Source of the DNA: an uncultured bacterium
GTDB lineage: Bacteria > Patescibacteriota > Minisyncoccia > UBA6257 > 2-01-FULL-56-20
Direction of reading: 5' to 3'
Assembly: GCA_963696395.1 (NCBI GenBank)
Contig: CAVOJZ010000002.1
Location: forward strand, 848,619 to 912,618
DNA length: 64,000 bases
The translations under genes and the position numbers were made by a program. A model generated the notes under the pieces. The model was not told where the DNA came from. It saw only the letters and a program-made list of their open reading frames with translations, and did no database searches. This document shows, piece by piece, positions 209 to 17,691 of the stretch (position 1 is the first letter of the stretch; each line of letters opens with the position of its first letter).

Positions 209-640
209 ATGATTAATCTTCCTTCCATACAAAAGAAATCCCAGCGCATCGGACGCAGCGGAAAGCGCGGCAGCTATTCCGGCCGTGGCGTAAAGGGACA
301 GAAGTCCCGCTCCGGTCATCGCATCCGTCCTGCCGAGCGCGATCTCATCATGCGCATTCCAAAGATGCGCGGTTTCCGCAATAAGCCGAAAGATGCAATT
401 CCGGAAGTATTCAATCTCTCACTCCTCTCGGTTCGCTTGAAGCCGTATATAAAAGGATCCACCCCGGTTGAGCTCACGAACGAGCTTTTGCGCACGGCGC
501 GGCTTGTCCGGAAAGATTTCAACGGCATCGTAAAGATTTTGGGGACAGGGGAGATGGCATTCCCGATTACCGTTTCCGGCATCAAGGTTTCGGCAGGCGC
601 CCGGAAAAAAATTGAGAAAGCTGGCGGCAGCGTAAAATAA
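209..640 (+). CDS. rplO: 50S ribosomal protein L15
   Basis: Gly/Arg-rich N-terminus (GRSGKRGSYSGRGVKGQKSRSG) typical of L15. Located between S5 and secY. Confidence 0.9.
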   Translation: MINLPSIQKKSQRIGRSGKRGSYSGRGVKGQKSRSGHRIRPAERDLIMRIPKMRGFRNKPKDAIPEVFNLSLLSVRLKPYIKGSTPVELTNELLRTARLVRKDFNGIVKILGTGEMAFPITVSGIKVSAGARKKIEKAGGSVK

Positions 641-1912: not shown

Positions 1913-1930
1913 GGAACTACGCGCGGAAAT

Positions 1931-1965
1931 AAAAAATCCCGCCCAAGATATTTTTTTGGGCGGAG
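1931..1965. terminator. bidirectional terminator-like hairpin between convergent secY and ORF 1996..2565
   Basis: A-tract, then stem cccgcccaa / ttgggcgg with a T-rich loop. On the minus strand the hairpin is followed by a T-run. Confidence 0.5.
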
Positions 1966-1995
1966 TGGGAGCATTGGACCATGGGCGTCCAAACA

Positions 1996-2565
1996 CTAAA
2001 CGATGATGTGGGATTTGTGCCGGGCGATGGGATATTGCATCACTTCAATCTCGTTCTTCACCAGGTTCAGGCCATAGACGCAGTCTTCGAATTTCTGCGA
2101 AAGCAGAGCAAACGTAGGTGCGACTTTTGCATGCTCGTATTGGTCGAATCTGGAAACGATGTAATAGCTCTCCTTCCCGGCCTTCATCCAGTCAACAAAA
2201 TTTTCAACGCGCTGGCGGCGCAAACGGAAATGATTGATGCTCTCCGGATACATCCCGGCGAAAAACAAGGTGAAATCGCCGATATGTTTTCGCACTTCCC
2301 GTTCACGCTCAAAGGAAGGGGCAGGGCCGTAAATGGGGTCCGACTCGATCAGCATCTCGCCGAGATCGAAGATCGGGGTTCCATCGTTGCCGTAGGCCCT
2401 CTTGAGTAATAGCTCTTTATAAGAACAGAACTTGGCAAGCAGGTCGGTGATATACTGCAAAACCGCCGGATCGTTAAACCGAAGTTCGTTCTTGAAATGT
2501 AGATTGATGAGCGGGGCGAACAATTGTTCCAGCAGTTTCGGTTCGGTAACCTCGTTAATCATCAA
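1996..2565 (-). CDS. hypothetical protein (189 aa, soluble, no recognised domain)
   Basis: Clean 189-aa ORF convergent with secY and divergent from the next gene. No motif I can name. Confidence 0.55.
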   Translation of the reverse strand: MMINEVTEPKLLEQLFAPLINLHFKNELRFNDPAVLQYITDLLAKFCSYKELLLKRAYGNDGTPIFDLGEMLIESDPIYGPAPSFEREREVRKHIGDFTLFFAGMYPESINHFRLRRQRVENFVDWMKAGKESYYIVSRFDQYEHAKVAPTFALLSQKFEDCVYGLNLVKNEIEVMQYPIARHKSHIIV

Positions 2566-2656
2566 CGGCCTCCCTTGCTGCTTTTAGCATAGAGGAAATC
2601 AAATATTGCGCAAGTACCGGTCTGGCCAGTCCGGTTTGTTAGGATTAAAGGAATCC

Positions 2657-3313
2657 ATGCCCGACCTTAGCCTTGGTATTGTCCTTGTCCTCATCACTCT
2701 TTTTGGCGCATTTAGTAATTATTTAAACTGGCGGTATTTGAATAACGGCATTATCCGTCTTTTATACTACGTCGGCGCTTTTGTGCATGAGATGTCGCAT
2801 GCGGTGGTGTGCCTGCTTACGGGGGCAAAAATTAAGCAGATTGCCATTTTCTGCGAACAACCGCAGGTTGTGCACCAAAAATCAAAGATTCCGTTCCTGG
2901 GAGAACTTTTAATATCTGCTGCACCGATAGCCGGGGGATTGCTATTTTTGTTTCTCATGAATCGTTATGTTCTGGGAAATTATTTCGTATTACCGGCGAT
3001 TGCGAATGTCAACGATTGGCGATCCATTCTCATGGAGCCGCTTGCCATCGTCTCGCAGATCAATCTGCTTCAATGGCAAAGCTGGGTTATGATACTGTTA
3101 TTTTTTAATGTCGGCGCCATGATCGGCCCTTCGCTCAGAGACTTGAGGAACGTTTGGCCCGCACTCATCGTACTTTTCTTTGTGCAGTCGTCTTTGCTTG
3201 CGGGTATCGGACTCATGGCGCTCGGTTTGATATTTGTAAACATTATTCTGCAGGTTCTTGTTATTGTTCCCTCGGAAATCGGCTCTCTTGCGATGCGGGA
3301 GCGAGTGAGTTGA
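2657..3313 (+). CDS. small polytopic membrane protein with an HExxH motif (putative membrane-embedded zinc metalloprotease-like protein)
   Basis: HEMSH sits inside a hydrophobic segment (FVHEMSHAVVCLLTG). There are several TM helices. The ATG at 2657 is preceded by aaagga; the listed 2606 start is a TTG. Confidence 0.6.
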   Translation: MPDLSLGIVLVLITLFGAFSNYLNWRYLNNGIIRLLYYVGAFVHEMSHAVVCLLTGAKIKQIAIFCEQPQVVHQKSKIPFLGELLISAAPIAGGLLFLFLMNRYVLGNYFVLPAIANVNDWRSILMEPLAIVSQINLLQWQSWVMILLFFNVGAMIGPSLRDLRNVWPALIVLFFVQSSLLAGIGLMALGLIFVNIILQVLVIVPSEIGSLAMRERVS

Positions 3314-3367
3314 CGAATTGGCTTGAATATAGTATGATAGTTTTAGTGGCAGCCCCAAGGAGGGGAT

Positions 3368-3823
3368 ATGCATAAACTTTTTGGCACGCTATGGTTTGCG
3401 ATGTTTTTCGTCGCATCAGCCCTTTCCGCCCAGGTTTTGTTCCCCCCGCAGGGTGCAAATGGTTGGATCGAAGGAGCGTCCGGGGAAAAAGGGTTTTTTA
3501 CGGAATTTGTTTCAGAGGACAAGAACTGCATCGTGAGTGTCAGTAAGAACGGGAAGAAAGTTCGGATTCAGGCATCCGAAAAATCCAAAAACGATTTTCT
3601 CGTGGAGAGCGCTACCGTCACGAGTCGTTCTTTCCTGAAGCTGATTCCAAGGAAGTCCCGGTTCGATCTTGTTTTTCGTGAACAGCACGACGGCAATCCC
3701 GTACAAGAAGTGCGTGGCGACGACGGTACGCCCGACATCATTGCACTGAAGTACGCTCAGCTTGCACAGCGGCTCCCGGCATGGGTCAAAAAATCATTTA
3801 AGAACCATTTTGACCTCAAGTGA
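3368..3823 (+). CDS. secreted hypothetical protein (signal peptide)
   Basis: Strong RBS aaggagggg 4 nt before the ATG. N-terminal hydrophobic signal MHKLFGTLWFAMFFVASALSAQ. A clean terminator follows. Confidence 0.65.
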   Translation: MHKLFGTLWFAMFFVASALSAQVLFPPQGANGWIEGASGEKGFFTEFVSEDKNCIVSVSKNGKKVRIQASEKSKNDFLVESATVTSRSFLKLIPRKSRFDLVFREQHDGNPVQEVRGDDGTPDIIALKYAQLAQRLPAWVKKSFKNHFDLK

Positions 3824-3842
3824 AACAGAGTAATTTCGTTCC

Positions 3843-3870
3843 AGCCCGCGATTCATCGCGGGCTTTTTTT
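3843..3870 (+). terminator. rho-independent terminator
   Basis: Perfect 9-bp stem agcccgcga / tcgcgggct with loop ttca, followed by TTTTTTT. Confidence 0.8.
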
Positions 3871-3930
3871 GCAAAAAAACCCGGCAGGGAGGGATTGGAC
3901 CTCGCTGCCGGGGACGTTGATACGCAGTGC

Positions 3931-4269
3931 TTACTGCGTAGTGCGGGGCTGTTGCTTGAGCCAGGCTTTCTTGAGTGCTTCGACTTCTTGTTTAAGCCGT
4001 AACCTCTCAGGATCGTGGCCGGGTATGCCGCCGCGCGGCCGGACAGATAGACGCATCTTCCGGTCTTGAGCCAGGCGCATTGCCTGACTTGCGATGCCGT
4101 TCGGTTGGTGAATACCGGCGGGCGCATCGCAGCTGTTCGCCAGAGCCATTGGTCCGTCGCGGAGCCGTTTGTGGTCTTCCATGAAGAGACTCCAATCAGG
4201 TAATGTTTGGCTGAACGACCACAGATTACCATAATTTTTAAATTTAAGCAACGCAATCACCATTTCCAA
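3931..4269 (-). CDS. hypothetical protein (112 aa) in a locally GC-rich spacer
   Basis: ORF only. Weak SD and no recognisable domain. Could equally be non-coding. Confidence 0.3.
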   Translation of the reverse strand: MEMVIALLKFKNYGNLWSFSQTLPDWSLFMEDHKRLRDGPMALANSCDAPAGIHQPNGIASQAMRLAQDRKMRLSVRPRGGIPGHDPERLRLKQEVEALKKAWLKQQPRTTQ

Positions 4270-4297
4270 AAATCGATTTTCTTGTTAAACTATTTGC

Positions 4298-4975
4298 ATG
4301 CGTAAGATTGTTGTTGTACTCTACGGCCCGCCCGGTGCAGGGAAGGGCACGCAAGCGAATTTGCTTGCCAATAAACTCGACCTCATCCATTTCGATACGG
4401 GGAAATTTTTGGAATCAATCGTTCACGATCCGCATCGCCAGCATGAAAAAATTGTAAAACGCGAACGGAAGCTTTTTGACGGTGGAAAATTGATGACGCC
4501 AAGCTTTGTGACGGGCGAAGTGATGCGGGAAGCGCAGCGCATTTCAAAAGCGGGCTGGGGAATTGTCTTGAGCGGTTCGCCGCGAACCATGTACGAGGCG
4601 CAAAAACTGTATCCACTTTTCTCAAAGTTGTACGGGAAGAAGAACGTGAATATTTACGTGCTTGATCTTCCGGCTTCGGGATCCATCACGCGCAATGGCG
4701 CACGCATGGTGTGCGGCGAGTGCGGCTATCTTTTGCTCACGGCGTTTTATCCGCATCGGAAGCCGAAACATTGCCCGGTCTGCGCAGGCCCATTTTATAA
4801 GCGCAGTTTGGATAAGCCAAGCGTCATTAAAATTCGATTAAAAGAATATGAAAAGCGGACATTCCCGATTTTTGCCTATGTAAAAAAGCACGGCTATACG
4901 CTTCGCCACGTTGACGCCCGCCCGGCGCCGTATAAAGTGATGGAGCACATTTATGGTCACTTTAAAAACGAATGA
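4298..4975 (+). CDS. adk: adenylate kinase (zinc-finger LID type)
   Basis: P-loop GPPGAGKGTQ and a CGECGY...CPVC zinc knuckle. Located after secY. Confidence 0.95.
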   Translation: MRKIVVVLYGPPGAGKGTQANLLANKLDLIHFDTGKFLESIVHDPHRQHEKIVKRERKLFDGGKLMTPSFVTGEVMREAQRISKAGWGIVLSGSPRTMYEAQKLYPLFSKLYGKKNVNIYVLDLPASGSITRNGARMVCGECGYLLLTAFYPHRKPKHCPVCAGPFYKRSLDKPSVIKIRLKEYEKRTFPIFAYVKKHGYTLRHVDARPAPYKVMEHIYGHFKNE

Positions 4976-5714
4976 GGAGATAGAGATCATGGCCACGGGA
5001 GGAGTAATCCTCGCGGGCGTTCTTCGGCGACTTGAAGCGGAAACCAAAGTTGGCGTGGCGACCATTGAACTTGACCGTTTGGCACGCCTGCTCATCACGG
5101 GTGCCGGAGCAAAGCCGGCTTTTTTGCACTACCGTCCCGCGGGAGCCAGCAAGTCATATCCGTATACGTTGTGCGCTTCGGTTAACGACGTTGTCGTGCA
5201 CGGCCAGCCATCGGTGTATAAAATTCGCGAAGGGGATCTTGTAAAACTCGATCTCGGGTTGAAATATCAAGGGCTTTATCTTGATGCGGCGATTACGGTT
5301 CCGGTGGGCGATGTCGGTGCGAAAGCAAAGAAGTTGATCGAAACCACAAAAGGCGCGCTCGAAGCAGCGGTGAAAGAAGCCAAGCCGGGGAATTCGCTTG
5401 GTGATATTGGCTACGCCGCGCAGAGAGTCGTTGAGAAAAATAAATTTTCGGTGGTCGAAGGGCTTACCGGTCACGGCATCGGAACCGCGCTTCACGAAGA
5501 TCCGACAGTTTTTAATTTCGGACGCAAAGGACAAGGCGAGGATTTGGAAGTTGGCATGGTTATCGCCATCGAACCTATGGTCGCCATAGGGGATGGCGCG
5601 ATCAGGCAATTGCTCGATGAAAGCTATGGAACCGCGGACGGCTCGCTCGCCGCGCATTTTGAGTATACGGTTGCGATTACGGCAAAGGGCCCGCGCATTT
5701 TAACAAAAATATAG
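4953..5714 (+). CDS. map: methionine aminopeptidase type I
   Basis: N-terminus LKTNEEIEIM, then VHGQP, HGIGTALHEDP and metal-ligand motifs. Overlaps the adk 3' end by 23 nt. Confidence 0.95.
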   Translation: MVTLKTNEEIEIMATGGVILAGVLRRLEAETKVGVATIELDRLARLLITGAGAKPAFLHYRPAGASKSYPYTLCASVNDVVVHGQPSVYKIREGDLVKLDLGLKYQGLYLDAAITVPVGDVGAKAKKLIETTKGALEAAVKEAKPGNSLGDIGYAAQRVVEKNKFSVVEGLTGHGIGTALHEDPTVFNFGRKGQGEDLEVGMVIAIEPMVAIGDGAIRQLLDESYGTADGSLAAHFEYTVAITAKGPRILTKI

Positions 5715-5746
5715 CGAGGGGTTTGCTATACTAGTGGTATATCCCC

Positions 5747-6493
5747 ATGGCTCAGCCATACCTCTCAATCATTATTCCGGCCTATAATGAGGCCGAGCGT
5801 ATTCCGAAGACGCTGCTTGATATTGACCGGCGCCTTGAACACGCGGAATATTCCTACGAAATTTTGGTGGTGAATGACGGTTCAAAAGACAATACTGCCG
5901 AGATCGTGCGGAATATGACGAAGGCCGTCCGGAATCTAAAAGTCATTGACCTCAAAGACAACCTTGGCAAGGGCGCCGCCGTACGTCAGGGTATGCTCCT
6001 TTCGAGTGGGAAGATCCGGCTTTTCACCGACGCAGACAATTCGACATCGATTGATCAGTTCAACGGCATGATGCCGTTTTTTAAAGAAGGCTTCGATGTG
6101 ATCATCGGTTCGCGCGCTATTGCCGGAGCAAAGCTCGATCCAGCGGAGCCGATTTTCAAACAGATCCCCGGCAAACTCGGAAACCTTTTCATCCAGGCAC
6201 TTTTACTTCCCGGCATCTGGGATACCCAATGTGGTTTCAAGGCGTTCACCGACGAAGCCGCCGAAAAGATATTTACCATTTCAAAAATCACCGGCTGGGG
6301 ATTTGACGTAGAAATCCTTTCGCTCGCAAAGCTGAAAAGCTATAAAATCAAGGAAATTCCGGTCTATTGGGTGAACGATACCCGGTCGCATGTCGGCGCG
6401 TCCGCCTACTTGAAAGTTTTGTCCGAAACGATTAAAATTCGCCTATGGCTGTGGAGGAAGCAATACGACCCTCCAAGCACAGTTCAAACCTGA
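5747..6493 (+). CDS. family 2 glycosyltransferase (dolichyl/polyprenyl-phosphate sugar transferase-like)
   Basis: SIIIPAYNEAERI, VVNDGSKDNT and a TDADNS DxD-like motif. Confidence 0.85.
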   Translation: MAQPYLSIIIPAYNEAERIPKTLLDIDRRLEHAEYSYEILVVNDGSKDNTAEIVRNMTKAVRNLKVIDLKDNLGKGAAVRQGMLLSSGKIRLFTDADNSTSIDQFNGMMPFFKEGFDVIIGSRAIAGAKLDPAEPIFKQIPGKLGNLFIQALLLPGIWDTQCGFKAFTDEAAEKIFTISKITGWGFDVEILSLAKLKSYKIKEIPVYWVNDTRSHVGASAYLKVLSETIKIRLWLWRKQYDPPSTVQT

Positions 6494-6503
6494 GAAAAGT
6501 CGC

Positions 6504-6530
6504 ATTCCGGCCTCCCCGCCGGAATTTCTT
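6504..6530 (+). terminator. terminator-like hairpin after the GT2 gene
   Basis: Stem attccggc / gccggaat with loop ctcccc, then a T-rich tail. Confidence 0.5.
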
Positions 6531-6556
6531 AACCTAAATACGAATCATTAATTACT

Positions 6557-7015
6557 ATGAGCAAGCAATATGTCACCAGGGAGCGGCTCGAGGAATTTAA
6601 AGCCGAGCTCGAAGAACTCAAAAACACGCGCCGGTTGGAAGTGGCGCAGCGGTTGAAGCAGGCGAAAGAATACGGCGACCTTTCGGAAAATTCCGAATAC
6701 GTTGAAGCTCGCGAAGAGCAGGCAAATGTCGAAACGCGCATCGGGGAGCTTGAGGATCTCGTGAAGAATGCCGTGATCATCGAAAAGTCCGAGGGCGGAG
6801 ACACGGTGCAGGTCGGTTCGACCATAACCGTGAAGAAGGGAGATAAGACGGCAACCTACACGATCGTCGGTGCGTACGAAGCAAAACCGGAAGAAGGAAA
6901 AATTTCCGATGAGTCACCGTTGGGCCGTGCATTCCTCAAGCGCAAGGCGGGAGATTCGGTGAATATCGCGACGCCGGCCGGCGCCATGACGTACGAGATC
7001 AAGGAGATCAAATAA
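6557..7015 (+). CDS. greA: transcription elongation factor GreA
   Basis: Coiled-coil N-terminus followed by the GDLSENSEYVEAREEQ motif and the FKBP-like C-terminal domain. Confidence 0.9.
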   Translation: MSKQYVTRERLEEFKAELEELKNTRRLEVAQRLKQAKEYGDLSENSEYVEAREEQANVETRIGELEDLVKNAVIIEKSEGGDTVQVGSTITVKKGDKTATYTIVGAYEAKPEEGKISDESPLGRAFLKRKAGDSVNIATPAGAMTYEIKEIK

Positions 7016-7018
7016 GCG

Positions 7019-7744
7019 ATGGTGGAATTTTCCCACGTTACGAAGACTTTCAAGAAGCGCAAAAGCGCGGTGAATGATTTTTCCCTGACGGTTGATGTTC
7101 CGATTTTTGGATTTCTTGGCCAGAACGGCGCAGGGAAGACGACGATCATGAAAATGACGGTTGGGTTGCTCGCGGCGACGAGCGGTACGATTTTGATTGA
7201 CGGCAAGCCGTCAACGGACGAAGACTCCAAGAAAAAAATGGGCTTCATGCCGGAAACGCCGTACTTCTACGAAACGATGACAGGTTTGGAATTTCTGCGT
7301 TTTAGCGACGAATTGTTCGAATCCACTGACGGCAAAAAGAAACAATACGACGACCTTCTGAAGAAAGTGGGTATTTTCGACGCGCGGAACTTCCAGATCA
7401 AGACTTATTCAAAAGGCATGCGCCAGCGCCTTGCATTTGCCCAGGCGCTTGTTAACGATCCGCAATATCTTTTTCTCGACGAGCCTCTCGACGGCCTCGA
7501 TCCGCTCGGCCGCCGGGAAATGAAAGAGGTGATGCTTGCACTCAAAAAAGAAGGGAAGAATATTTTCCTCAACACACATATTCTGTACGACGTCGAAGAG
7601 ATGTGCGATGAGGTCGGCGTGATCCATGCGGGAAAACTTCTCTACGCAGGATCGGTGAAAGGCTTTTCGCAGGGGAAAACCCTTGAAGAACGCTTTACGG
7701 AAACGCTCGCCGAGCACGAAGGAAAAACACTTGTCCATGCGTAA
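7019..7744 (+). CDS. ABC transporter ATP-binding protein (ABC-2 type)
   Basis: Walker A GQNGAGKTT, signature YSKGMRQR and Walker B LFLDEP. Confidence 0.9.
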   Translation: MVEFSHVTKTFKKRKSAVNDFSLTVDVPIFGFLGQNGAGKTTIMKMTVGLLAATSGTILIDGKPSTDEDSKKKMGFMPETPYFYETMTGLEFLRFSDELFESTDGKKKQYDDLLKKVGIFDARNFQIKTYSKGMRQRLAFAQALVNDPQYLFLDEPLDGLDPLGRREMKEVMLALKKEGKNIFLNTHILYDVEEMCDEVGVIHAGKLLYAGSVKGFSQGKTLEERFTETLAEHEGKTLVHA

Positions 7745-8501
7745 TATTTGGATTATCGCCAAGAATACGTTCAAGCTCGAGGTTCGCGAGAAGATTTTAT
7801 ATGCGATCGTGGTCTTTGCCGTGCTCTATATGCTTTCGTCGCTTTTTCTTGCGGACCTTGTCTTAAAGGAGTTGCCGATGGTGAAAAGCTTTGCACTTTC
7901 GGGCGTCTATTTCTTTAACGCTATCCTCGCAATATTTCTTGGCACGACATCGTTCTTTAAGGACATCGACCGTAAAGTGGTTTATTTTATCCTTTCAAAA
8001 CCCGTCTCCCGCGCGCAATTCCTGCTCGGTAAATACTTTGGACTCTGTATGGTACTGCTTGCAACGACGCTCATTTTTATGGTTGCTTATCTTGGCGTCG
8101 TTGCCTATGAAGGCGGCGGATTCGATGCGATGGGCATTCTTGCCATTGCGATGCAATATCTCGAGATGATGCTTTTCCTCGCGTTCGCAACCTTCGTTTC
8201 AACCTTCTCAACGTCCTTGCTTTCCATCGTTTACACGTCGGCGGTTTTCTTTGCCGGTCATGTGGTGAGCGCCCTCCTTACGGATGCGAAAGCGGTAAAC
8301 ATTGTCGGATTTAAATATCGGATGGTTCAGGTGCTTTATTATGTTTTCCCGAATCTCGAAAAATTCGATATCAGGGATTTCGCCGTACACAGCGTTGCCG
8401 CGCCGCTTCAGTCAACGCTTCTCGCGATTGTTTATGCCGCGGTGTATATCGTTCTTCTTCTCACGGCCGGAATCTGGATTTTTGAAAAGAAAGAAATCTA
8501 G
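7737..8501 (+). CDS. ABC-2 family transporter permease
   Basis: About 6 TM helices. The ATG at 7737 overlaps the ATPase stop by 8 nt; the listed 7683 start is also possible. Confidence 0.7.
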   Translation: MRNIWIIAKNTFKLEVREKILYAIVVFAVLYMLSSLFLADLVLKELPMVKSFALSGVYFFNAILAIFLGTTSFFKDIDRKVVYFILSKPVSRAQFLLGKYFGLCMVLLATTLIFMVAYLGVVAYEGGGFDAMGILAIAMQYLEMMLFLAFATFVSTFSTSLLSIVYTSAVFFAGHVVSALLTDAKAVNIVGFKYRMVQVLYYVFPNLEKFDIRDFAVHSVAAPLQSTLLAIVYAAVYIVLLLTAGIWIFEKKEI

Positions 8502-8503
8502 CG

Positions 8504-9391
8504 ATGGCGAAACGAAGCCTCGGAGCTGTTTCAAAAACGATAATCCTTGTCCTTCTCATAATCGTCATCGTTGTCGTGCAGTACGATTACGATCTTTCGA
8601 GTTCGCAGGTTCCTGCCGGTCTTGCGGGCTATACGTCGCCGGAATTTATCCGTATGGTTGATATGGGCTTCAACTCGACGATTGCTTCGGCTTTGTGGGC
8701 GGGAACCATGCCCGAAGTGCTCGATCTCTTTAACAACAAAACGGAATACCTGAACGACGTTGCCTATGTGATTGCCGTTGATCCTAGGATGAGCTATCCG
8801 TATGCTTTTTCGGTGCTGACGCTGCCGGCGATTCCGAAAGCCCGCTGGGCAGGGGATGCGAGCGATACGCTCGCGCTCGCAATCGGACAGCAGGGCATTC
8901 TGAATGCGGATCCAGACTGGCGCATTCCTTATTACATGGCCATCGATTATTATCTCGACGTTAAAGATACAAAAAGTGCTTTGGAATATTTTGATATCGC
9001 CGGCCGCACGCCGGGAGTACCCGAGTACGCCGAACGTTTTGCCTTGAACTTTGGCATCGGCACCAATGACCGGGCAAAGACGGAAGAGTTGTGGGCGACC
9101 ATCGCGAGCTCGACGAATGACGAGGCCACTCAGGAGCGTGCGAGGGCATACGTAACCCGGCTCCAGATTTTCGATTACCTCGAAGCCGCCGCAAAGCTTT
9201 ATAAGGCTCAAATTGGAGTGTATCCAACGTCTACCGGGGAGCTGGTGACAGCAGGAATTATTCCCTACGTGCCCGATGATCCTTTCGGTTTCACTTTTAT
9301 TTTTCGTTCCGGCGGTCAGGCTGACATAGATTTGAACAAAGCACCGACGGTTGCGCCGCCGGTGCTCGATCAGCTGGAAGCTCCGAAGTAG
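8504..9391 (+). CDS. membrane-anchored hypothetical protein (N-terminal TM, extracytoplasmic helical domain)
   Basis: N-terminal hydrophobic anchor IILVLLIIVIVVV. The antisense 287-aa ORF is Arg-rich junk. Confidence 0.6.
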   Translation: MAKRSLGAVSKTIILVLLIIVIVVVQYDYDLSSSQVPAGLAGYTSPEFIRMVDMGFNSTIASALWAGTMPEVLDLFNNKTEYLNDVAYVIAVDPRMSYPYAFSVLTLPAIPKARWAGDASDTLALAIGQQGILNADPDWRIPYYMAIDYYLDVKDTKSALEYFDIAGRTPGVPEYAERFALNFGIGTNDRAKTEELWATIASSTNDEATQERARAYVTRLQIFDYLEAAAKLYKAQIGVYPTSTGELVTAGIIPYVPDDPFGFTFIFRSGGQADIDLNKAPTVAPPVLDQLEAPK

Positions 9392-9393
9392 CA

Positions 9394-10299
9394 CTAATAC
9401 GTGGTCGTGCTACCCGTGTAGGGGATCATCAAGCCCGTTGTCTGTGACCAGTTACTCAGCTTTGCGTTTATCCAGTTTATGAGTTGTTGAAAACTGAGCG
9501 TTGCGCCGACGTGGATATAATTCATGTAGTTCGGCACGGTGAATGTCTGGCCGTTGCTCAATTGCACAACGAACGATCCGTCGCTATTCACTTGAGTGAT
9601 GGTGCCGCTCAAATTTTCATAATTTGAGATGTTTATATTACTGAGATCGGGGAAAAGCGCAGTGAGTCCGGCGGGAAGACCGGTCGTTGTGGTTATCGGT
9701 AAGGTTGTTGGTGCAATGCCAATCTGCGGCTTCGAAAGGTCTCTTACGACGGTCGCCTGAAGTGTGCCGTCTGGGGTGTATGCACCGTAAGCATTAATTT
9801 GATCTCCCGGAGTGATATTTGCGATTACACCCGGAGTCCGATTCCGGAGCAGGACCTCCGTATCGGCGTTAATTTGGATTTGGTACGCCGTCCCGCTTGC
9901 GATAGCCGGACATGTGGTTGGAATGCTCGACGCCGCCGTCTGATCCGGGAAAGAAAGACAGATAGCCGCAGCGCTTCCGTTTGCCATCTGTCCCGGATCG
10001 ATTGCCTGAATTACGGCCGGTGCCTGATTTGAGGTAACAGCGGTCACGATGAGGCCGTCAAATTGCACCCAATTTCCAGCTGGCAACGGCAAAGTTATCG
10101 TGGGCATTGTCGGTAGCGATGCCGGAGGGTAGTTCCCGGTTGAGCCGCTCGTGGAGGAGGCGGATGAGGAACTCATTGCCGAAGTGTTTTCGGTACTCGT
10201 CCCGGTGTAGGAGAAGAGTTGGGCATTTGCGGTGAGGCCGATGCTCGCTGTGAGGGAAGCGATCGCGAGCGCAAGAAAAATGTTTTGTTTGTTTTTCAT
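9394..10299 (-). CDS. secreted Ser/Thr-rich protein, paralog of 10473..11681
   Basis: Signal peptide MKNKQNIFLALAIASLTASIGLTANA. Shares the modules LLRNRTPG...GDQINAYGAY..DG.LQA.VVRDLSKP and NSDGSFVVQLSNGQTFTV with the neighbouring gene. Confidence 0.7.
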   Translation of the reverse strand: MKNKQNIFLALAIASLTASIGLTANAQLFSYTGTSTENTSAMSSSSASSTSGSTGNYPPASLPTMPTITLPLPAGNWVQFDGLIVTAVTSNQAPAVIQAIDPGQMANGSAAAICLSFPDQTAASSIPTTCPAIASGTAYQIQINADTEVLLRNRTPGVIANITPGDQINAYGAYTPDGTLQATVVRDLSKPQIGIAPTTLPITTTTGLPAGLTALFPDLSNINISNYENLSGTITQVNSDGSFVVQLSNGQTFTVPNYMNYIHVGATLSFQQLINWINAKLSNWSQTTGLMIPYTGSTTTY

Positions 10300-10424
10300 G
10301 ATGTTGCTGTTAATTTATTTTTAACACCCCGAGGGCCATGGATTCCCGGGCGCATTCTTTGATACGGCATGTCGTTTTATTTATTACAAATCAGCATTAT
10401 TCGAGCTCTGAAATGCTTGCAAAC

Positions 10425-10453
10425 AAAAACTCCGGCGACATGCCGGAGTTTTT
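10425..10453. terminator. bidirectional rho-independent terminator
   Basis: AAAAA, then stem actccggc / gccggagt with loop gacat, then TTTTT. Lies immediately downstream of the minus-strand gene that ends at 10473. Confidence 0.75.
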
Positions 10454-10472
10454 GGGAGAACGGGCGATTCAG

Positions 10473-11681
10473 CTACTGATTGGTCGGATTAACGACTGCC
10501 GGCACGGGTATCATCGGGGGCATACTCACTGTGGAGTTCCCGATGGTGATTTGCGAAACAGATGAGATCGTGTTGTTAAGCGAGCTCATGAGTCCGCGAA
10601 CCGTCACGGTCGCGCCTACTGTTATCGGATTCTCGACGGTTACCGTGGATCCGTTGTTCATTTTGATGACGAACGAACCATCTGCATTTATTGCTGTCAC
10701 CGTCCCCGTATAGGCAGATGCCGTTACCGGAAGCGAGAGGTCGCGGATGATGTCTGCGGTGATCGTTTGGCCGTTGTCGCTCGATTCGCCGTACACATTC
10801 AGCATGTCGCCGGTGTTAAGGCTCGAAAGCGAAAGCTGGTTCCGATTGCGATCAAGGATAATCGTCCGTGAATCAACAGTCACGACATATTTATGGAGCA
10901 TCATCCAGTTCGGTGCAAGCGCCGAAGGGGCTGTTACGTTTGCCGTCGCCGGATTGGCGGAAAAATCTGAAACACCCATCGGGCACGCAATCGCCGCACC
11001 GGAGCTGTTGGCATCAAATCCAAGACAGGGCGAACCAACGGCTTGCGTTACAGCGAGCGTCGCAGAGGTTCCCACGCCCGATTCGGCAATCGAAACCAAA
11101 GTTACGTTGTCGAGCTGCATCGTTTGCGTCTCTGCCGGCTTTGATATGTCGCGCACAAGATAGGCCTGGATGCTGCCATCGGCATTGTAATAGCCGAAGA
11201 CGTTAATTTGGTCGCCCTGCGAGAAATCGCTGAGCGATGCCTGAGTTCGGTCGCGAAGGATCAGCTGCGTTGAGGGAGAAACTTCAATGGTGACCGTATT
11301 CTGGTATACCGGAGGGACCGGCATATAGTTCGTACTCGACGTGCTGCCGTTTGCTACAGCCGTCGGCGTTCCGGGGGCGGTTTGAGCCTGCATTGGGCAG
11401 GCGATGGACTCGCCTTGCGCATCGCTTTCCGAATTAAAACGGAGACACGTGCTTGCTCCGGTAGCCGTGATGACTCCGGTGGTATTTGATACCGTAGCCG
11501 CAACGCTTTGGACCGTTAATGTATTAAACTGCACGAATCCCGGAGTAATCGGCGGACTGACGGGTCCCGGGGAGATAAGCGCCGGACCATCTGTCGGAGC
11601 AGCGGTCTGAGCATGCACACCGACTGAGCTAAACATAAGCACAACTAATGCTAAAAGGGCACAAGAAGTTATCTTTTTCAT
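10473..11681 (-). CDS. secreted protein with two copies of the R-D/N-R...GD.(I/L)NV(F/Y)G...(V/I)RD(I/L)S.P module; paralog of 9394..10299
   Basis: Signal peptide MKKITSCALLALVVLMFSSVGVHA. Internal duplication (LILRDRTQ...LVRDISKP and IILDRNRNQ...IIRDLSLP) and a C-terminal NADGSFVIKMNNGSTVTV module shared with the paralog. Confidence 0.75.
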   Translation of the reverse strand: MKKITSCALLALVVLMFSSVGVHAQTAAPTDGPALISPGPVSPPITPGFVQFNTLTVQSVAATVSNTTGVITATGASTCLRFNSESDAQGESIACPMQAQTAPGTPTAVANGSTSSTNYMPVPPVYQNTVTIEVSPSTQLILRDRTQASLSDFSQGDQINVFGYYNADGSIQAYLVRDISKPAETQTMQLDNVTLVSIAESGVGTSATLAVTQAVGSPCLGFDANSSGAAIACPMGVSDFSANPATANVTAPSALAPNWMMLHKYVVTVDSRTIILDRNRNQLSLSSLNTGDMLNVYGESSDNGQTITADIIRDLSLPVTASAYTGTVTAINADGSFVIKMNNGSTVTVENPITVGATVTVRGLMSSLNNTISSVSQITIGNSTVSMPPMIPVPAVVNPTNQ

Positions 11682-11810
11682 TGTTTTAGGGTTTTTTATA
11701 AGCCTCGCGAGGGCTATACGTTTTCGACCTGTACCTTATATGATACCAAACAGAGTCAGATCTGTTACACCATAAAAAAGCCCCCCTAATCATAAAGAAA
11801 AGAGGGGATA

Positions 11811-12476
11811 TTAAGGGATCGAAGCTTGAGCTATATTCGAATAGCCGCTTTCAGCCCATCCACTAGCGTTAGGGCATGAACCGCTGTTCGTATAATCCCC
11901 GTAAAACGTGACCACATAGTAGTAAATGAATCCAGGTTGCTCGCTGTCGTCGGTGTAACTTGTTGTTGTGACTAGACTGGCAAGCTCACTGAAGGGAGGT
12001 CCATCTAATGTACTTACATACACGTTGTATCCCACGTTGCTATAGCATGGATCCGATGCCGATGGGCTCGGATCCCAAGTGAGATTCACGACGTACCATC
12101 CGGTTCCTTTTACCGACAGCTTCGGCGAATTGGTAGCGGTGCTTACCACGGTTACGGTACCGGTTGCGAGACCTCCGGTTGTGGGACTGAAAATCACCGT
12201 GAAGGTGGCTTTGCCTTTCCCTGGGATCGTCTTCGGGAGGGTAATTCCTCCGATCGCGAATTCACTGCTCCCGACGCCATTGATCGCTTTGATGGTCACC
12301 GGAGCGCTTCCGGTGTTTTTTATCGTGATGGTCTTTGCGTTTTGGCTACCATCGTCGATGATCCCGGCATTCCACGATGTTGGACTGAATGCGATTGTGC
12401 CGGCATTGCCGAAACAATTCGCCGAACAGGCAAACAACCAAAATGCGATTGCAGCGAAATTGATATATTTCGGCAT
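11811..12476 (-). CDS. secreted protein with an ASH/choice-of-anchor-D-like domain and one fibronectin-III-like domain
   Basis: Signal peptide. TIKNTGSAPVTIKAINGVGSSEFAI...ATFTVIFSP fits the ASH/Hydin-type Ig fold. NLTWDPSP...GYNVY...YYYVVT fits Fn3. Confidence 0.7.
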   Translation of the reverse strand: MPKYINFAAIAFWLFACSANCFGNAGTIAFSPTSWNAGIIDDGSQNAKTITIKNTGSAPVTIKAINGVGSSEFAIGGITLPKTIPGKGKATFTVIFSPTTGGLATGTVTVVSTATNSPKLSVKGTGWYVVNLTWDPSPSASDPCYSNVGYNVYVSTLDGPPFSELASLVTTTSYTDDSEQPGFIYYYVVTFYGDYTNSGSCPNASGWAESGYSNIAQASIP

Positions 12477-12533
12477 GCAGGCTCTTCCTTTCCTGAATTT
12501 GAAGTTGTGCTGGTTTCAGTATACTATAGGGAA

Positions 12534-15500
12534 ATGCAATCGAGAACAGCCGCCTTCACCATCATTATTTGGGCTGTTTTTAAGATTTTTTTCGTTCCGT
12601 TTTTCGCGCGCGCTGCCCTATATAATGCCGATAGTCTTTTGGGGCACATCGATCAGAGTAATAACCCTATCTACACCGTCGAAGGGGCAAATAACGGGCC
12701 GAACAATCTTGGCTTTGATAATCCTCTTGATATCGCAATTGACTCCATCAACCACCGAGTTTTCGTAATTGACCAAAACAATTCCCGCATCCTCGTTTAC
12801 GCGCTCGACTCAAATGATAATATTGCCGGCACGGCCCCAATCTTTGTCCTCGGGCAAAGTAATTTTATATCTTCGAACGTTGCTACAGCGCAAAATACAC
12901 TCGCTTATCCGGATGGCATCGCTTATGACGCGTCTAATAATCGTCTTTTTGTTTCGGATCAATTTAATAATCGTGTGGTGGTTTTTAATGTTGCACCCGG
13001 CACAATTACAAACGGCGAGAACGCCACGAATATTTTGGGCCAGGCTAATTTCGCCGCCTCAAGTTCAGCAACGTCGCAGAACGGGTTCAGCGCGCCGAGC
13101 GGCCTCGCTTATGACGCGACAACGAGTCGTCTCTTTGTGGGCGATCAAAACAATAACCGCGTTCTGATTTTCAATGTCGCCACGTCGACGTTTGCGAACA
13201 ATGAGAACGCCTCGAGTGTTATTGGCCAGGCTAATTTCACCGCCTCAAGTTCAGCAACGTCGCAGAACGGACTAGCCGGTCCATTCGGTCTCGTCCTCGA
13301 TGGCAACAATCGTCTTTTTGTGGCGGACAACGGCAATAACCGGGTAGTTTATTTCAATGTCGCCACGTCGACGTTTGCGAACAATGAGAACGCCTCGAGT
13401 GTTATTGGCCAGGCTAATTTCACCGCCTCAAGTTCAGCAACGTCGCAGAACGGACTAGCCGGTCCGCAGGGTATCAGCTACGACGGTGTCGGCAACCGTC
13501 TTTTTGTGGCGGACAGCGGCAATAACCGCTTGATGGTTTTTGCGGTTGGCACTTCGACGTTTACAAACGGTGAAAACGCTTCAACCGTTCTCGGTCAAAC
13601 TGATTTTAACGGATCGAACTCAAGCGTTTCACAGAGCAGCCTCAATAATCCTTATGGCGTTGCTTACGACACCATCAACAACGGCCTTTTTGTATCCGAC
13701 GCCGCCAATAACCGACTTCTGGTTTTTCCTGCGGCCACTTCGTCGATATCGAACGGCGAAAACGCTTCAGGCATTCTCGGCGAATCGGTGTATACGCTTG
13801 GTGGCGCAAACGGAGGTCCAAGCGGAGAAGGTATGGATTCCCCGGTTGATACGGCACTTGACACCGTGAACCATCGACTCTTTGTTTCTGACCAGAATAA
13901 CAACCGGGTGCTTGTTTTTACCCTGGATGCAAACAATAAAATTTCAGGCACTACAGCGGCATTTGTTCTTGGGCAAAGTAATCTGACGAGTGGTGCCCCG
14001 AATACGACGCAAAACGGTTTGACCAATCCTTATGGCCTTGCCTATGATGCCGCGAGCAATCGTCTTTTTGTTGCGGACAATGGGAACAACCGGATTCTTG
14101 TGTTTAATGTTGCCCCCGGAACACTCGCAAATAATGAGAACGCAATGAATGTTCTTGGCCAGAGTGGATATACGGCTTCAAGTTCCGCGACGTCAAACAC
14201 TGGGTTGAACTCGCCGTATGGTCTCATGTATGACGCAGCCGGCGGCCGCCTCTTTGTCGCTGACGAAGGGAACAATCGTATTATGGTTTTTAACGCGGGA
14301 AGTTCGACCATAATCAGCGGTGAGGGCGCGGTGAACGAACTTGGCCAGACAGATTTTAACCATTCCCATTCGGGCACATCTCAGAGAGGATTGAACGGCC
14401 CTTCCGGGCTCTCTTATGACCCCGTTTCTAATCGTCTCTTTGCGGTGGATGAAAACAATAATCGTGTCATGATTTTCGCGGTCGGTACGTCAACATTTAC
14501 GAGCGATGAGGTTGCCTCAAATGAGCTCGGTCAATCAAATTTCAGCGGATCAACTGCCACCACAACTCAAAACGGTTTTAACGATCCCTATGGCATCGCC
14601 TACGATACGATTAACGGACGCCTTTTTGTAACAGACACCGGAAATTACCGCATTATGGTTTTTAATAATGTTTCGACGTCGAGCATCTCAAACGACGAGA
14701 ATGCATCTAATGATATCGGTCAGGCGGACTTTGTTTCTTCGGGTGGACCGAATGTTTCCCAGACCGGGATAAATTCGGATAATGCAATCGCCTTCGACCC
14801 GGCAAATAACCGGCTCTTCGCGGTGGATAATTCTCTGAGTCGCCTGATGCAACTTTCGTTTGTAAAGATTACAACAGCGTCTTTACCCACCGGCACGGTT
14901 GGCTCTTCGTATTCACAAACCCTTATCACGACTTCCACCCAAGGGACAGTCACGTTTGCCTTGAAGGCCGGTTCGTTGCCGCCAGGATTAGCACTTTCGA
15001 GTTCGAGCGGAATTATTTCCGGAACTCCTTCGACGGCAACGACGACTACATTCACCGTCGAGGCGGACAATACATTTTCCACGGGATCCTTCTTTGATCA
15101 GGCAACATTGTCGCTTACCACCGCGAATGGGCAGGCGGCGATATCGCTTGCTCCGACCCTCTTAAGCTACACGGCATCTTCGACGGCAACCTCAACGCAT
15201 GAAGGAACTCAGTTTGTTATTCTCACGAACAGCGGTAGCGGATCGTCAACGCTTAATTGGACGGCAAACTCGTCGCAATCTTGGCTCAGTCTAACAAAGT
15301 CAACAGGAACCCTCGCAACGAACGCTACGACGAGCATTGGGTTTATGATAAATCCTTCGTCGCTCGCAATTGGGGCATATAACGCAACGGGAACTTTTTC
15401 AGATGCCTCGTCTTCCAATTCACCACAGACTGTTTCGGTCACCCTCACCATAGCGTCTGCTGCAGGACCGGCAATCTTCCTTTCGCCGACTTCATTAAAC

Positions 15501-16316
15501 TACACCGCAACGGTGGGTGCTTCGTCTCCAAATGAAGGGATATTGAGCGTTACGGTAACAAACAGTGGGTCCGCGTCAACAACGCTTCACTGGGCAGTCG
15601 CTTCATCCCAGTCGTGGCTTACGTTTACCGCGGCGAGTGGCACTTTGGCAACAGGCGTGGCAACGAGCGTTGGGTTTGTGGTCGATCCTTCCTCGCTGGC
15701 TGTGGGAACATTTAATGCAACCGGTACTTTTAGTGATGCATCGTCAACGAATTCTCCGCAATCGGTAAGCGTTGTACTCACGGTTTCGGCGTCGGGTGGA
15801 GGTGGCGGTGGTGGAGGTGGCGGTGGTGGAGGTGGAGGTGGAGGAGGTGGCGGTGGCGGCGGTGGCGGTGGCGGAGGTGGCGGTGGCGGCAGCGGTGGCG
15901 GCAGCGGCAGCGGCAGCGGCAGCTCTTCTACTTCAACGAACGCAACAAGCACCGCAACGAGCGCCAATGTGAACACCGCGAGCTCAACTGATCTAATCGC
16001 AATCCTTCAATCGCTTCTCGCCGAGTTGAATGTGCTTATCGCAAAACTTAACGCAAAACTCATACCACTCCTTACAAGAAATCTTACCGTTGGCAGTTTT
16101 GGCCCTGACGTGAAAGCTTTGCAGACACTGCTCAATGATAACGGCTATCCCATTGCGACGACCGGATCTGGATCGCCCGGGAACGAATCGCAGTATCTTG
16201 GACCGAGAACATCGGCGGCGCTTGCCAAGTTTCAAAAAGCAAACGGTCTTCCGGCGACAGGTTTTTTTGGTTCGCTGACCCGGGCGTTACTGATCAAAAA
16301 GTGGGGCGGGGAATGA
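12534..16316 (+). CDS. giant cell-surface NHL-repeat beta-propeller protein with BACON-like domains, a poly-Gly linker and a C-terminal peptidoglycan-binding domain
   Basis: The ATG at 12534 gives a TM/signal segment TAAFTIIIWAVFKIFFVPFF; the upstream part of the listed ORF overlaps the minus gene. About 14 NHL-type repeats (LFV.D.GNNRV.VF). Two BACON-like modules (STLNWTANSSQSWLSL...). More than 60 consecutive Gly/Ser residues. A PG_binding_1-like end (GPDVKALQTLLNDNGYP...ALAKFQKANGL). Confidence 0.85.
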   Translation: MQSRTAAFTIIIWAVFKIFFVPFFARAALYNADSLLGHIDQSNNPIYTVEGANNGPNNLGFDNPLDIAIDSINHRVFVIDQNNSRILVYALDSNDNIAGTAPIFVLGQSNFISSNVATAQNTLAYPDGIAYDASNNRLFVSDQFNNRVVVFNVAPGTITNGENATNILGQANFAASSSATSQNGFSAPSGLAYDATTSRLFVGDQNNNRVLIFNVATSTFANNENASSVIGQANFTASSSATSQNGLAGPFGLVLDGNNRLFVADNGNNRVVYFNVATSTFANNENASSVIGQANFTASSSATSQNGLAGPQGISYDGVGNRLFVADSGNNRLMVFAVGTSTFTNGENASTVLGQTDFNGSNSSVSQSSLNNPYGVAYDTINNGLFVSDAANNRLLVFPAATSSISNGENASGILGESVYTLGGANGGPSGEGMDSPVDTALDTVNHRLFVSDQNNNRVLVFTLDANNKISGTTAAFVLGQSNLTSGAPNTTQNGLTNPYGLAYDAASNRLFVADNGNNRILVFNVAPGTLANNENAMNVLGQSGYTASSSATSNTGLNSPYGLMYDAAGGRLFVADEGNNRIMVFNAGSSTIISGEGAVNELGQTDFNHSHSGTSQRGLNGPSGLSYDPVSNRLFAVDENNNRVMIFAVGTSTFTSDEVASNELGQSNFSGSTATTTQNGFNDPYGIAYDTINGRLFVTDTGNYRIMVFNNVSTSSISNDENASNDIGQADFVSSGGPNVSQTGINSDNAIAFDPANNRLFAVDNSLSRLMQLSFVKITTASLPTGTVGSSYSQTLITTSTQGTVTFALKAGSLPPGLALSSSSGIISGTPSTATTTTFTVEADNTFSTGSFFDQATLSLTTANGQAAISLAPTLLSYTASSTATSTHEGTQFVILTNSGSGSSTLNWTANSSQSWLSLTKSTGTLATNATTSIGFMINPSSLAIGAYNATGTFSDASSSNSPQTVSVTLTIASAAGPAIFLSPTSLNYTATVGASSPNEGILSVTVTNSGSASTTLHWAVASSQSWLTFTAASGTLATGVATSVGFVVDPSSLAVGTFNATGTFSDASSTNSPQSVSVVLTVSASGGGGGGGGGGGGGGGGGGGGGGGGGGGGGGGGSGGGSGSGSGSSSTSTNATSTATSANVNTASSTDLIAILQSLLAELNVLIAKLNAKLIPLLTRNLTVGSFGPDVKALQTLLNDNGYPIATTGSGSPGNESQYLGPRTSAALAKFQKANGLPATGFFGSLTRALLIKKWGGE
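15793..15921 (+). repeat. (GGN)n followed by (GGC-AGC)n trinucleotide microsatellite encoding a poly-Gly/Gly-Ser linker
   Basis: About 36 uninterrupted GGN codons, then GSGSGS codons, read directly from the sequence. Confidence 0.9.
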
Positions 16317-16881: not shown

Positions 16882-17691
16882 ATGGAGACTAAAATGGAGA
16901 CAAGAATTGCTCTGTGGGCAAAAGTTTGCCAGATGTCGCCGGGAAGATTCTTGATTCTCACTCCCGAAGACAACGAAAATTTATCAAGGCTTCGCGCTCG
17001 CGTAAACAGATATTTAAAAAAGAAAAACTCGGATTGGAGGATCGGCTTCGGTGTTCGGGTTTTGTCGAGAACTTGCAGAAACCATCTCGTGGTGGAAAAG
17101 TGGCGTAGACCGATAGTCGTTCCCCGTAACGGGCTCGTTGATCAATTAGGGGAGCGAGCGGATCGAAATGGAGCTGCGATCGGTCTCGATCAGTTGGAAT
17201 ACCAGATCGTGATTCTCGCGATGCACGGGCACGACAACCCGGAAATTGCGAGCGAGCTCAATATGACTGAACGAACCGTAAAAAAATATTTTAGTTGTAT
17301 GTTTGAAGATTTCAACATTCCCACTAAAATATCGGGACGTAAAGTCATTAAGCGAATTGTTCTGCTTAGTGCGATCGCAAAATCACTGGCGAGGATTCGT
17401 AATAAAGATGGCTTTTGCCCAACCGTGACCACTATGCGTATTCGACGGCTTGGTGAAATGTTTGATCAGTCGTCTTGTAATCTGCGGATCATCCGTCTCG
17501 TGGCCAAGGGATACAAAAATGAGGAAATTGCCGTTATGACCGGAGATTCAGTAGGGGTCGTAAAAAATAAACTTCGAGAGATATTTGCGATCGTTGGTTG
17601 TGAAAGTCGGACCATGTTGTCGCAGAAATTTCTTGAGGATCAATTGATGAGCCGGAAAGTTAAATCCAAGCGTACCCCACGACAAAATTAA
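16882..17691 (+). CDS. transcriptional regulator with two tandem LuxR/GerE-type HTH domains
   Basis: Two LuxR-type HTH domains: LDQLEYQIVILAMHGHDNPEIASELNMTERTVKKY and NLRIIRLVAKGYKNEEIAVMTGDSVGVVKNKLREIF. No receiver or ligand-binding domain recognised. Confidence 0.75.
   Translation: METKMETRIALWAKVCQMSPGRFLILTPEDNENLSRLRARVNRYLKKKNSDWRIGFGVRVLSRTCRNHLVVEKWRRPIVVPRNGLVDQLGERADRNGAAIGLDQLEYQIVILAMHGHDNPEIASELNMTERTVKKYFSCMFEDFNIPTKISGRKVIKRIVLLSAIAKSLARIRNKDGFCPTVTTMRIRRLGEMFDQSSCNLRIIRLVAKGYKNEEIAVMTGDSVGVVKNKLREIFAIVGCESRTMLSQKFLEDQLMSRKVKSKRTPRQN

Follow-up and report, generated by a model that had tools for sequence, protein, structure and literature searches.

Among proteins that attach non-covalently to the bacterial cell wall, AcmA of L. 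lactis has its functional domain at the N-terminus, binds the wall through C-terminal LysM domains and contains low-complexity spacers (PMC3210951). An extracellular six-bladed NHL beta-propeller is known from the PknD sensor of M. tuberculosis (PDB 1RWI), and the Pizza designs share this fold. Here we analyze a gene of an uncultured bacterium whose predicted product carries NHL propellers in its N-terminal part and a peptidoglycan-binding domain at its C-terminus. The gene (12534-16316, forward strand) lies in a stretch of 64,000 nucleotides (nt), referred to below as the window, from a contig of 913,682 bp (CAVOJZ010000002.1). The DnaK encoded in the window is 86-88% identical to Candidatus Paceibacterota proteins (Minisyncoccia 81-82%, Liptonbacteria 82%).

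Cultivated Patescibacteria are described as living as episymbionts on other bacteria (PMC11623550). How members of this group recognize and attach to partner cells is largely unknown, and large, fast-evolving surface proteins are plausible recognition or adhesion factors. The architecture described here recurs widely in public Patescibacteria genomes under generic annotations only and represents a large but uncharacterised family; a literature search on NHL, peptidoglycan-binding or surface proteins of the candidate phyla radiation (CPR)/Patescibacteria retrieved no paper describing it.

Architecture of the predicted protein

The gene is an uninterrupted open reading frame with its stop codon at 16314-16316, and translation from the ATG at 12534 yields 1,260 amino acids (aa). 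Two alternative in-frame starts were noted, a TTG at 12342, which would create an overlap of 135 nt with the minus-strand gene at 11811-12476, and a GTG at 12507, which is a possible start. The ATG at 12534 is preferred because it results in a typical signal-peptide N-terminus. The following features were assigned, all on the + strand:

12534 to 12614, +: predicted Sec signal peptide, aa 1-27 (MQSRTAAFTIIIWAVFKIFFVPFFARA), with an n-h-c layout and an AxA site before ALYNADS
12615 to 13829, +: NHL beta-propeller 1, aa 28-432, N-terminal cap and blades 1-6 of ~62 aa each (Pfam, repeat table, AlphaFold2, Foldseek)
13830 to 14858, +: NHL beta-propeller 2, aa 433-775, blades 7-12 (Pfam, repeat table, AlphaFold2, Foldseek)
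14871 to 15080, +: He_PIG (putative Ig) domain, aa 780-849 (Pfam PF05345, E 1.8e-9, 38.4 bits against a cut-off of 24)
15141 to 15455, +: BACON_2/ASH-like Ig beta-sandwich 1, aa ~870-974 (Pfam BACON_2; AlphaFold2; Foldseek, ASH/HYDIN-type Ig)
15471 to 15788, +: BACON_2/ASH-like Ig beta-sandwich 2, aa ~980-1085 (Pfam, AlphaFold2, Foldseek)
15792 to 15989, +: disordered low-complexity tether, aa 1087-1152, a Gly/Ser-only part of 46 aa and then a Ser/Thr/Ala/Asn-rich part (composition, AlphaFold2)
15795 to 15890, +: 32 consecutive Gly codons, aa 1088-1119 (15 GGT, 10 GGC, 7 GGA), in a 15-nt tandem array
15984 to 16073, +: long amphipathic helix, aa 1151-1180 (DLIAILQSLLAELNVLIAKLNAKL), with heptad-like Leu/Ile spacing (AlphaFold2 helix, conserved in relatives)
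16101 to 16292, +: PG_binding_1 domain, aa 1190-1253 (Pfam PF01471, 49.1 bits against a cut-off of 23, E 6.5e-13, profile positions 2-57 of 57)

We consider it likely that the product of this gene is a surface protein that an ultrasmall Patescibacteria (Paceibacterota-type) bacterium exports through Sec and keeps non-covalently on its wall, with an NHL head on an Ig stalk. The protein would be exported by the Sec pathway and cut by signal peptidase after ARA at aa 27. The three-helix PG_binding_1 domain would then hold the producer's own peptidoglycan, and the heptad-patterned helix may oligomerise it. A disordered tether of ~67 aa with 32 Gly and the three Ig-like domains (He_PIG and the two BACON_2/ASH-like modules) would serve as a stalk from which the propellers point outward, and the two NHL propellers would form a ligand-binding head, acting as adhesin or sensor for a ligand from a partner cell or the environment.

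The NHL assignment is carried by Pfam (PF01436, 166.4 bits against a cut-off of 20, E 2.8e-50, 11 stretches) and by a motif search that identified 12 repeats of ~62 aa. An AlphaFold2 (AF2) model of aa 1-809, built with 24 homologues (mean predicted local distance difference test score, pLDDT, 85.5; predicted template-modelling score 0.73), begins with a helix and continues with 12 blades of four strands each, those of propeller 1 at a pLDDT of ~90. In a Foldseek search the model matched six-bladed NHL propellers with target-normalised template-modelling (TM) scores of 0.81-0.85 (Drosophila Thin 6D69/6XG7, TRIM71 8J72, Pizza6S 6QSD), each match taking ~336-370 aligned columns, whereas the full-length matches were tandem double-propeller proteins. 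Since each six-bladed match covers about half of the model, the head appears to comprise two propellers, and the Foldseek matches suggest that both are closed six-bladed rings. Blade 1 finds its best match in blade 7 (56% identical), and blade 2 resembles blade 8 (62%) and its neighbour blade 3 equally well, which argues for two six-bladed propellers sharing a parallel internal order.

A second AF2 model covered aa 775-1260 and contains, in this order, two sandwiches, a disordered stretch, a helix of 30 residues and a three-helix domain (aa 1191-1258). Both sandwiches were modelled at pLDDT >90. The three helices of the PG_binding_1 domain span aa 1191-1202, 1224-1236 and 1247-1258 at a block-mean pLDDT of ~86-95. 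The He_PIG segment was poorly modelled (pLDDT ~40-50), and its assignment is that of Pfam.

An earlier note on this DNA, made from the letters and their translations, had placed the start at the ATG at 12534, and the signal-peptide-like N-terminus and the overlap of the longer TTG reading frame with 11811-12476 lead us to agree. The note had also predicted an NHL propeller protein with an Ig-like region, two BACON-like modules and a C-terminal PG_binding_1-like domain, and had proposed a Pfam scan and structure prediction as checks. Both were run: all of the named domains score above the curated cut-offs, and the AF2 models agree with them except for He_PIG. The NHL assignment held, whereas the count of about 14 repeats has to be replaced by 12 blades arranged as two six-bladed propellers. 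The proposed display of the propeller head away from a C-terminal domain that grips peptidoglycan, on a flexible tether, is likewise supported by the domain and model evidence.

Several points weigh against the reading as a wall-bound surface protein. The exact protein, from any of the three starts (12534, 12507, 12342), was absent from a collection of 15 billion sequences, and no close orthologue was found, the best match showing 52% identity. In a relative with a DnaK of 88% identity (contig_32526 of ERZ25039540) the YchF-RecR-DnaB-CysS-CorA-HrcA-GrpE-DnaK block is syntenic and the NHL gene is absent from the corresponding position upstream of YchF; given these two results, the function cannot be argued from conserved context. 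Short-read contigs (Logan, ERR11563597), the only independent assembly, match the window at 473-12089 with 0 mismatches and again from 15892 for 5,346 nt, to ~21237, and none of them covers the gene interior at 12090-15891, so that the length of the glycine tract lacks independent confirmation. The hydrophobic region of the N-terminus is long (~20 aa) and could stay in the membrane as an anchor. No ligand or conserved pocket was identified in the propellers, whose invariant residues are structural motifs of the individual blades. Finally, the binding of the PG_binding_1 domain to a wall is a prediction, and so is the identity of that wall as the cell's own.

The glycine tether

The whole low-complexity linker comprises 67 aa with 51 Gly and Ser residues, fewer than the more than 60 that had been estimated for the poly-glycine linker, and its Gly/Ser-only stretch consists of 38 Gly and 8 Ser. 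In the AF2 model the tether is disordered (aa ~1091-1148, pLDDT <50). Tandem Repeats Finder described the DNA of the Gly tract as an array with a period of 15, 6.1 copies and 92% matches. Such a 15-nt array of mixed codons has the appearance of a signature of in-frame slippage expansion, and the tract may grow or shrink by slippage with the reading frame intact, which would make its length variable. A sequence search of the PDB with the C-terminal part of the protein returned only the artificial (G4S)n linkers of engineered proteins and was uninformative.

We compared the tract with that of 188 relatives carrying PG_binding_1. A Gly run of at least 4 is found within 160 aa upstream of the domain in 83 of them, and a run of at least 8 in 30. 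Thus, a Gly run recurs upstream of PG_binding_1, as a check of its conservation in homologs was meant to establish, whereas its length is not kept: the longest run among the relatives is 11 residues, and the 32 residues found here are about three times as many. The Gly run is by far the longest seen and is the unusual feature of this protein.

The length of 32 Gly could be an assembly or consensus artefact, the true tract being about as long as in the relatives (up to ~11). This would be compatible with a wall-bound surface protein of the same architecture. The ceiling of 11 among the relatives points in this direction, as do the independent short-read assembly, in which a contig starts at 15892, exactly behind the Gly run, with the gene left unspanned, and the error-prone nature of low-complexity GGN arrays. 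On the other hand, the tract leaves the downstream helix and PG_binding_1 in frame, and it shows mixed GGT/GGC/GGA codons with a clean 15-nt period and no homopolymer. Moreover, as short-read contigs break at the tract, long tracts are probably under-represented in short-read databases, and the ceiling of 11 may partly reflect ascertainment. We therefore regard an artefact as unlikely.

The N-terminus

The N-terminus reads MQSR-TAAFTIIIWAVFKIFFVPFF-ARA, followed by ALYNADSLLGH, with the n-, h- and c-regions known from Sec signal peptides. When 25 family members were aligned, a small-x-small motif (ALA, AHA, SHA, AFA, ASA, ARA and others) always closed the hydrophobic stretch, and in ~20 homologues a highly conserved mature sequence, A-(L/S/A)-Y-N-A-S-(G/D)-L-L-G-Q, starts right after AxA. 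A conserved mature N-terminus directly behind AxA is expected from processing by signal peptidase I and argues against a retained N-terminal anchor. The N-terminal hydrophobic segment therefore looks like a cleavable Sec signal peptide, cut after ARA, and not like the N-terminal anchor assumed before; the protein is probably released from the membrane after export.

If the segment were instead an uncleaved signal anchor, the protein would be held in the membrane by its N-terminus and on peptidoglycan by its C-terminus and would thus bridge two layers. A hydrophobic region of ~20 residues is enough to cross a membrane, and aa 2-19 were modelled as a lone helix. However, Gram-positive-type signal peptides typically have long h-regions, and the AxA at the end of the hydrophobic stretch, with the conserved mature sequence exactly behind it, is shared by the query and the ~20 homologues. 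Retention of the segment in the membrane appears quite improbable to us.

The predicted C-terminal wall-binding cassette

The C-terminus of the protein shows no LPXTG sortase signal and no transmembrane segment; the sequence ends with ...LLIKKWGGE inside PG_binding_1. No SLH domain (PF00395) was found in the query by Pfam. The helix upstream of PG_binding_1 is conserved in relatives, and the spacing of 3-4 between its Leu/Ile residues in the query suggests that it may form a coiled coil or oligomerise and thereby add avidity.

The same C-terminus was found on small unrelated proteins, in which a passenger is followed by 5-11 consecutive Gly, a stretch rich in Ser/Thr/Ala/Pro, a LVAQLQTQLQALLAQIAAL-type helix and the sequence FTRNLTVGSxGxDVKALQ...GYFGxxTR. 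The closest relatives of this cassette show 58-66% identity over helix and domain, carry runs of G7-G11 and Gly/Ser stretches of up to 37 aa, and are found on proteins of 161-1,638 aa. An exhaustive search with aa 1143-1260 retrieved 11,710 representative clusters at E <= 1e-3 (93 at E <= 1e-30) from proteins of 161-5,549 aa. The cassette (Gly tract, helix and PG_binding_1) would mark these clusters, of which those examined are largely from Patescibacteria, as wall-retained, and it would provide a simple sequence rule for listing Patescibacteria surface proteomes, which is more useful than a single gene. The Gly tract appears to be a conserved feature of this anchor module. The cassette of poly-Gly, Ser/Thr-rich spacer, heptad helix and PG_binding_1 could possibly be a Patescibacteria-wide, sortase-independent surface-display tag with a length-variable and perhaps cleavable GGN spacer, a proposal that we put forward tentatively. 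If so, the GGN microsatellite, here expanded to 32 Gly, would determine the distance over which the passenger extends through the wall or surface layer (S-layer), and the Gly tract might double as a cleavage site for a Gly-Gly endopeptidase that releases the head.

In 147 of the 188 relatives, no more than 15 aa separate PG_binding_1 from the C-terminus. The orientation of the protein, considered unusual before, is not supported as such: since the N-terminus looks cleaved and a C-terminal wall module, in an AcmA-like layout, is common, the orientation is ordinary for non-covalently wall-bound surface proteins.

PG_binding_1 might target the peptidoglycan of a host cell, in which case the protein would be a released or bridging adhesin of an episymbiont. 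The lifestyle described for cultivated Patescibacteria is in line with this idea. PG_binding_1 is also common in wall hydrolases acting on foreign walls, and the NCBIfam scan gave a weak SleB-like match. However, hundreds of unrelated proteins (161 to >5,000 aa) carry the cassette, nearly always at the extreme C-terminus, and a generic retention tag fits this pattern better. In homologues SLH domains, which are known self-wall anchors, replace PG_binding_1. In addition, no lytic domain was detected in the protein by Pfam, and the genome has wall-synthesis genes of its own: the window encodes MreB as well as a transpeptidase of the PBP2 type, so that the cell makes its own peptidoglycan. Binding to a host wall is thus very unlikely in our view, and retention on the producer's own wall is the reading followed below.

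The propeller head and the Ig-like stalk

By sequence, the closest solved relatives of the propellers are the Pizza/PknD group, SOQ1, NHLRC2 and TRIM71. That the propellers are surface-displayed enzymes (lactonase, arylesterase or SGL-like) instead of binding modules, as the Pfam matches to Arylesterase (73.5 bits), SGL (45 bits) and SdiA-regulated (44 bits) above their cut-offs might suggest, is highly improbable, as the best stretches span only part of the profile (e.g. positions 41-83 of 86) and all overlap NHL matches, the nearest structures by sequence and fold are non-catalytic NHL propellers (Pizza/PknD, TRIM71, Thin, NHLRC2), the invariant columns are one structural motif recurring in each blade and not a single active site, and no enzyme model, nor any other model, came near its cut-off in the NCBIfam scan of the protein.

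N-x-S/T sequons seemed frequent in the propellers when inspected by eye; with 17 observed and 20 +/- 3.7 in shuffled sequences they are not enriched, and the idea was dropped.

Within the DNA of propeller 1, an exact-match scan identified a direct repeat:

13169 to 13282, +: 114-nt exact direct repeat, copy 1, joining blades 3 and 4
13352 to 13465, +: 114-nt exact direct repeat, copy 2, joining blades 4 and 5

The copies are offset by 183 nt and lie within an array with a period of 183 nt (13017-13529, 83% matches). An exact duplication had been proposed before; it exists, at these coordinates and with a length of 114 nt, whereas the 120-nt segments at 13161-13280 and 13341-13460 match at 34 of 120 positions in register.

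He_PIG follows the propellers in many homologues. Pfam assigned BACON_2 (PF19190) to the next part of the stalk in 2 stretches (47.9 bits against a cut-off of 25, E 1.3e-12, best aa 882-966). The best Foldseek matches of the sandwiches were Ig domains of the ASH/HYDIN/CEP192 type and 2QSV of P. gingivalis, in agreement with a secondary match to the HYDIN_VesB_CFA65-like_Ig model, which stayed below its cut-off on the query (20.9 against 25.5 bits). BACON domains are assumed to bind carbohydrate. None of the top 120 homologues of the NHL protein carries BACON_2 (0/120). The BACON_2 pair is a local domain shuffle, and together with the 32-Gly run this inserted pair makes up the local peculiarities of the query.

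Distribution of the family

More than 3,200 homologous proteins were found at E <= 1e-5, mostly from Patescibacteria, the best of them from Peribacteria, Pacebacteria, Falkowbacteria, Parcubacteria and Saccharimonadales. A scan of GTDB representative genomes returned only distant relatives (up to 34% identity over the propellers), and elsewhere in the window neither the propellers nor the BACON pair nor the anchor has a paralogue. Many homologues show the full layout of signal peptide, 12 NHL blades, He_PIG, a variable middle, the conserved helix and PG_binding_1; PF01471 is present in 22 of the top 120. In two homologues SLH (PF00395) takes the place of the anchor (P0046, P0094), and in others the twin propeller is fused to a histidine-kinase ATPase (PF02518; P0053, P0062, P0078, P0086, P0087, P0097 and others) or to RHS repeats (PF05593; P0064, P0110). 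This exchange of kinase, RHS and SLH partners suggests a general role of the twin propeller as a portable module for extracellular binding or sensing, with the anchor as a retention device that can be swapped.

These results leave the current understanding unchanged. They provide a well-supported annotation for an uncharacterised family in which all domains were already known.

Genomic context

A TATACT hexamer is located 8 nt upstream of the ATG at 12534 (window 12520-12536, +). No Shine-Dalgarno sequence was found at normal spacing before this ATG, and an AGGGAA directly abuts the start codon. The mRNA may be leaderless or carry a very short leader. A promoter scan near the gene start yielded nothing exceeding the shuffled expectation and did not flag the TATACT site.

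No conserved operon was found around the NHL gene. On the opposite strand its neighbours encode secreted DUF5666 and Ig/FN3-like proteins. The divergent gene at 11811-12476 (-), 57 nt from the start of the NHL gene, encodes 221 aa with a hydrophobic N-terminus and a lipobox-like LFAC/S (the slash marks the site); its product shows a HYDIN/ASH-type Ig match just above the cut-off and weaker DUF1573/ASH matches. The exact protein is not on record, and the Logan contig breaks inside this gene at 12089. Further upstream, 9394-10299 (-) and 10473-11681 (-) encode adjacent secreted DUF5666-repeat proteins with low-complexity, Ser/Thr-rich N-termini. Together with the NHL gene, the DUF5666 pair makes up a small group of neighbouring genes for surface or secreted proteins. 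Downstream, 16882-17691 (+) encodes a 269-aa protein with a GerE/LuxR-type helix-turn-helix at aa 106-146, which is also present in the Logan contig.

In the relative with 88% DnaK identity, contig_32526 carries at 1729-3121, directly upstream of YchF, a reverse transcriptase (RVT_1) and bAvd, the hallmark of a diversity-generating retroelement; these stand where the window has the LuxR-type gene and the NHL gene. Of the close relatives compared through DnaK synteny, the 95% relative has a contig that ends before the locus. The NHL gene behaves as a fast-evolving, strain-specific surface gene.

Other genes of the window were noted as well. A reading frame of 3,223 aa at 44156-53827 (+) combines an ALK/LTK-type glycine-rich domain at its N-terminus with 15 or more FN3/Pur_ac_phosph_N-type repeats and several runs of G5-G7; this organism thus probably has a further large surface protein. 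At 37873-39426 (-) the window encodes a glycosyltransferase of the PMT_2 family that resembles dolichyl-phosphate-mannose protein mannosyltransferases; it is pure speculation that this enzyme O-glycosylates Ser/Thr-rich linkers such as aa 1133-1152 of the NHL protein. A bacterial RNase P RNA of class A was identified at 58729-59123 (+) with 103 bits against a gathering score of 100, and no tRNA genes were found in the window.

Comparison with known systems

The ~105-aa BACON_2 modules of the query are 36-38% identical to those of tandem BACON_2/'choice-of-anchor D'/ASH proteins of Nitrospira, KSB1 and Gemmatimonadota (P0128, P0129, P0132, P0133), with which they share the G-x-G-T-L-x-W and W-L motifs. 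These proteins differ from the query in that PF01471 and NHL are missing from their precomputed Pfam lists.

More similar as a whole are the Patescibacteria proteins combining NHL, He_PIG and PG_binding_1 (P0041, P0043, P0085, P0068), whose names include 'peptidoglycan-binding protein [Patescibacteria group bacterium]' and 'putative Ig domain-containing protein'. They share with the query the AxA/A-x-YNAS junction (the slash marks the predicted cut), 12 blades with 45-52% identity over the propellers, the GENA..LGQ.NFT motif, He_PIG, a Gly-rich stretch, the helix and the C-terminal PG_binding_1. In contrast to the query, these proteins have FN3, another Ig or unassigned sequence between He_PIG and the anchor (15 homologues), and their Gly runs do not exceed 11.

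The propellers are six-bladed NHL propellers like that of PknD (E 2.6e-11) and those of the Pizza designs (E 1e-29; Foldseek TM 0.81 to Pizza6S), and some homologues of the query are fused to histidine kinases as PknD is to its kinase. However, the blades of the query comprise ~62 aa with two extended conserved loops, compared to 42 aa in PknD and Pizza, and, unlike PknD, the query has two tandem propellers, no kinase, and a wall anchor in place of the transmembrane link.

In its overall layout, the query resembles non-covalently wall-bound proteins and autolysins such as AcmA, as well as S-layer proteins, with the head at the N-terminus, the wall module at the C-terminus and spacers in between. 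It differs from them in having no hydrolase domain and in carrying, instead of LysM or SLH domains, a single PG_binding_1 behind a putative coiled coil.

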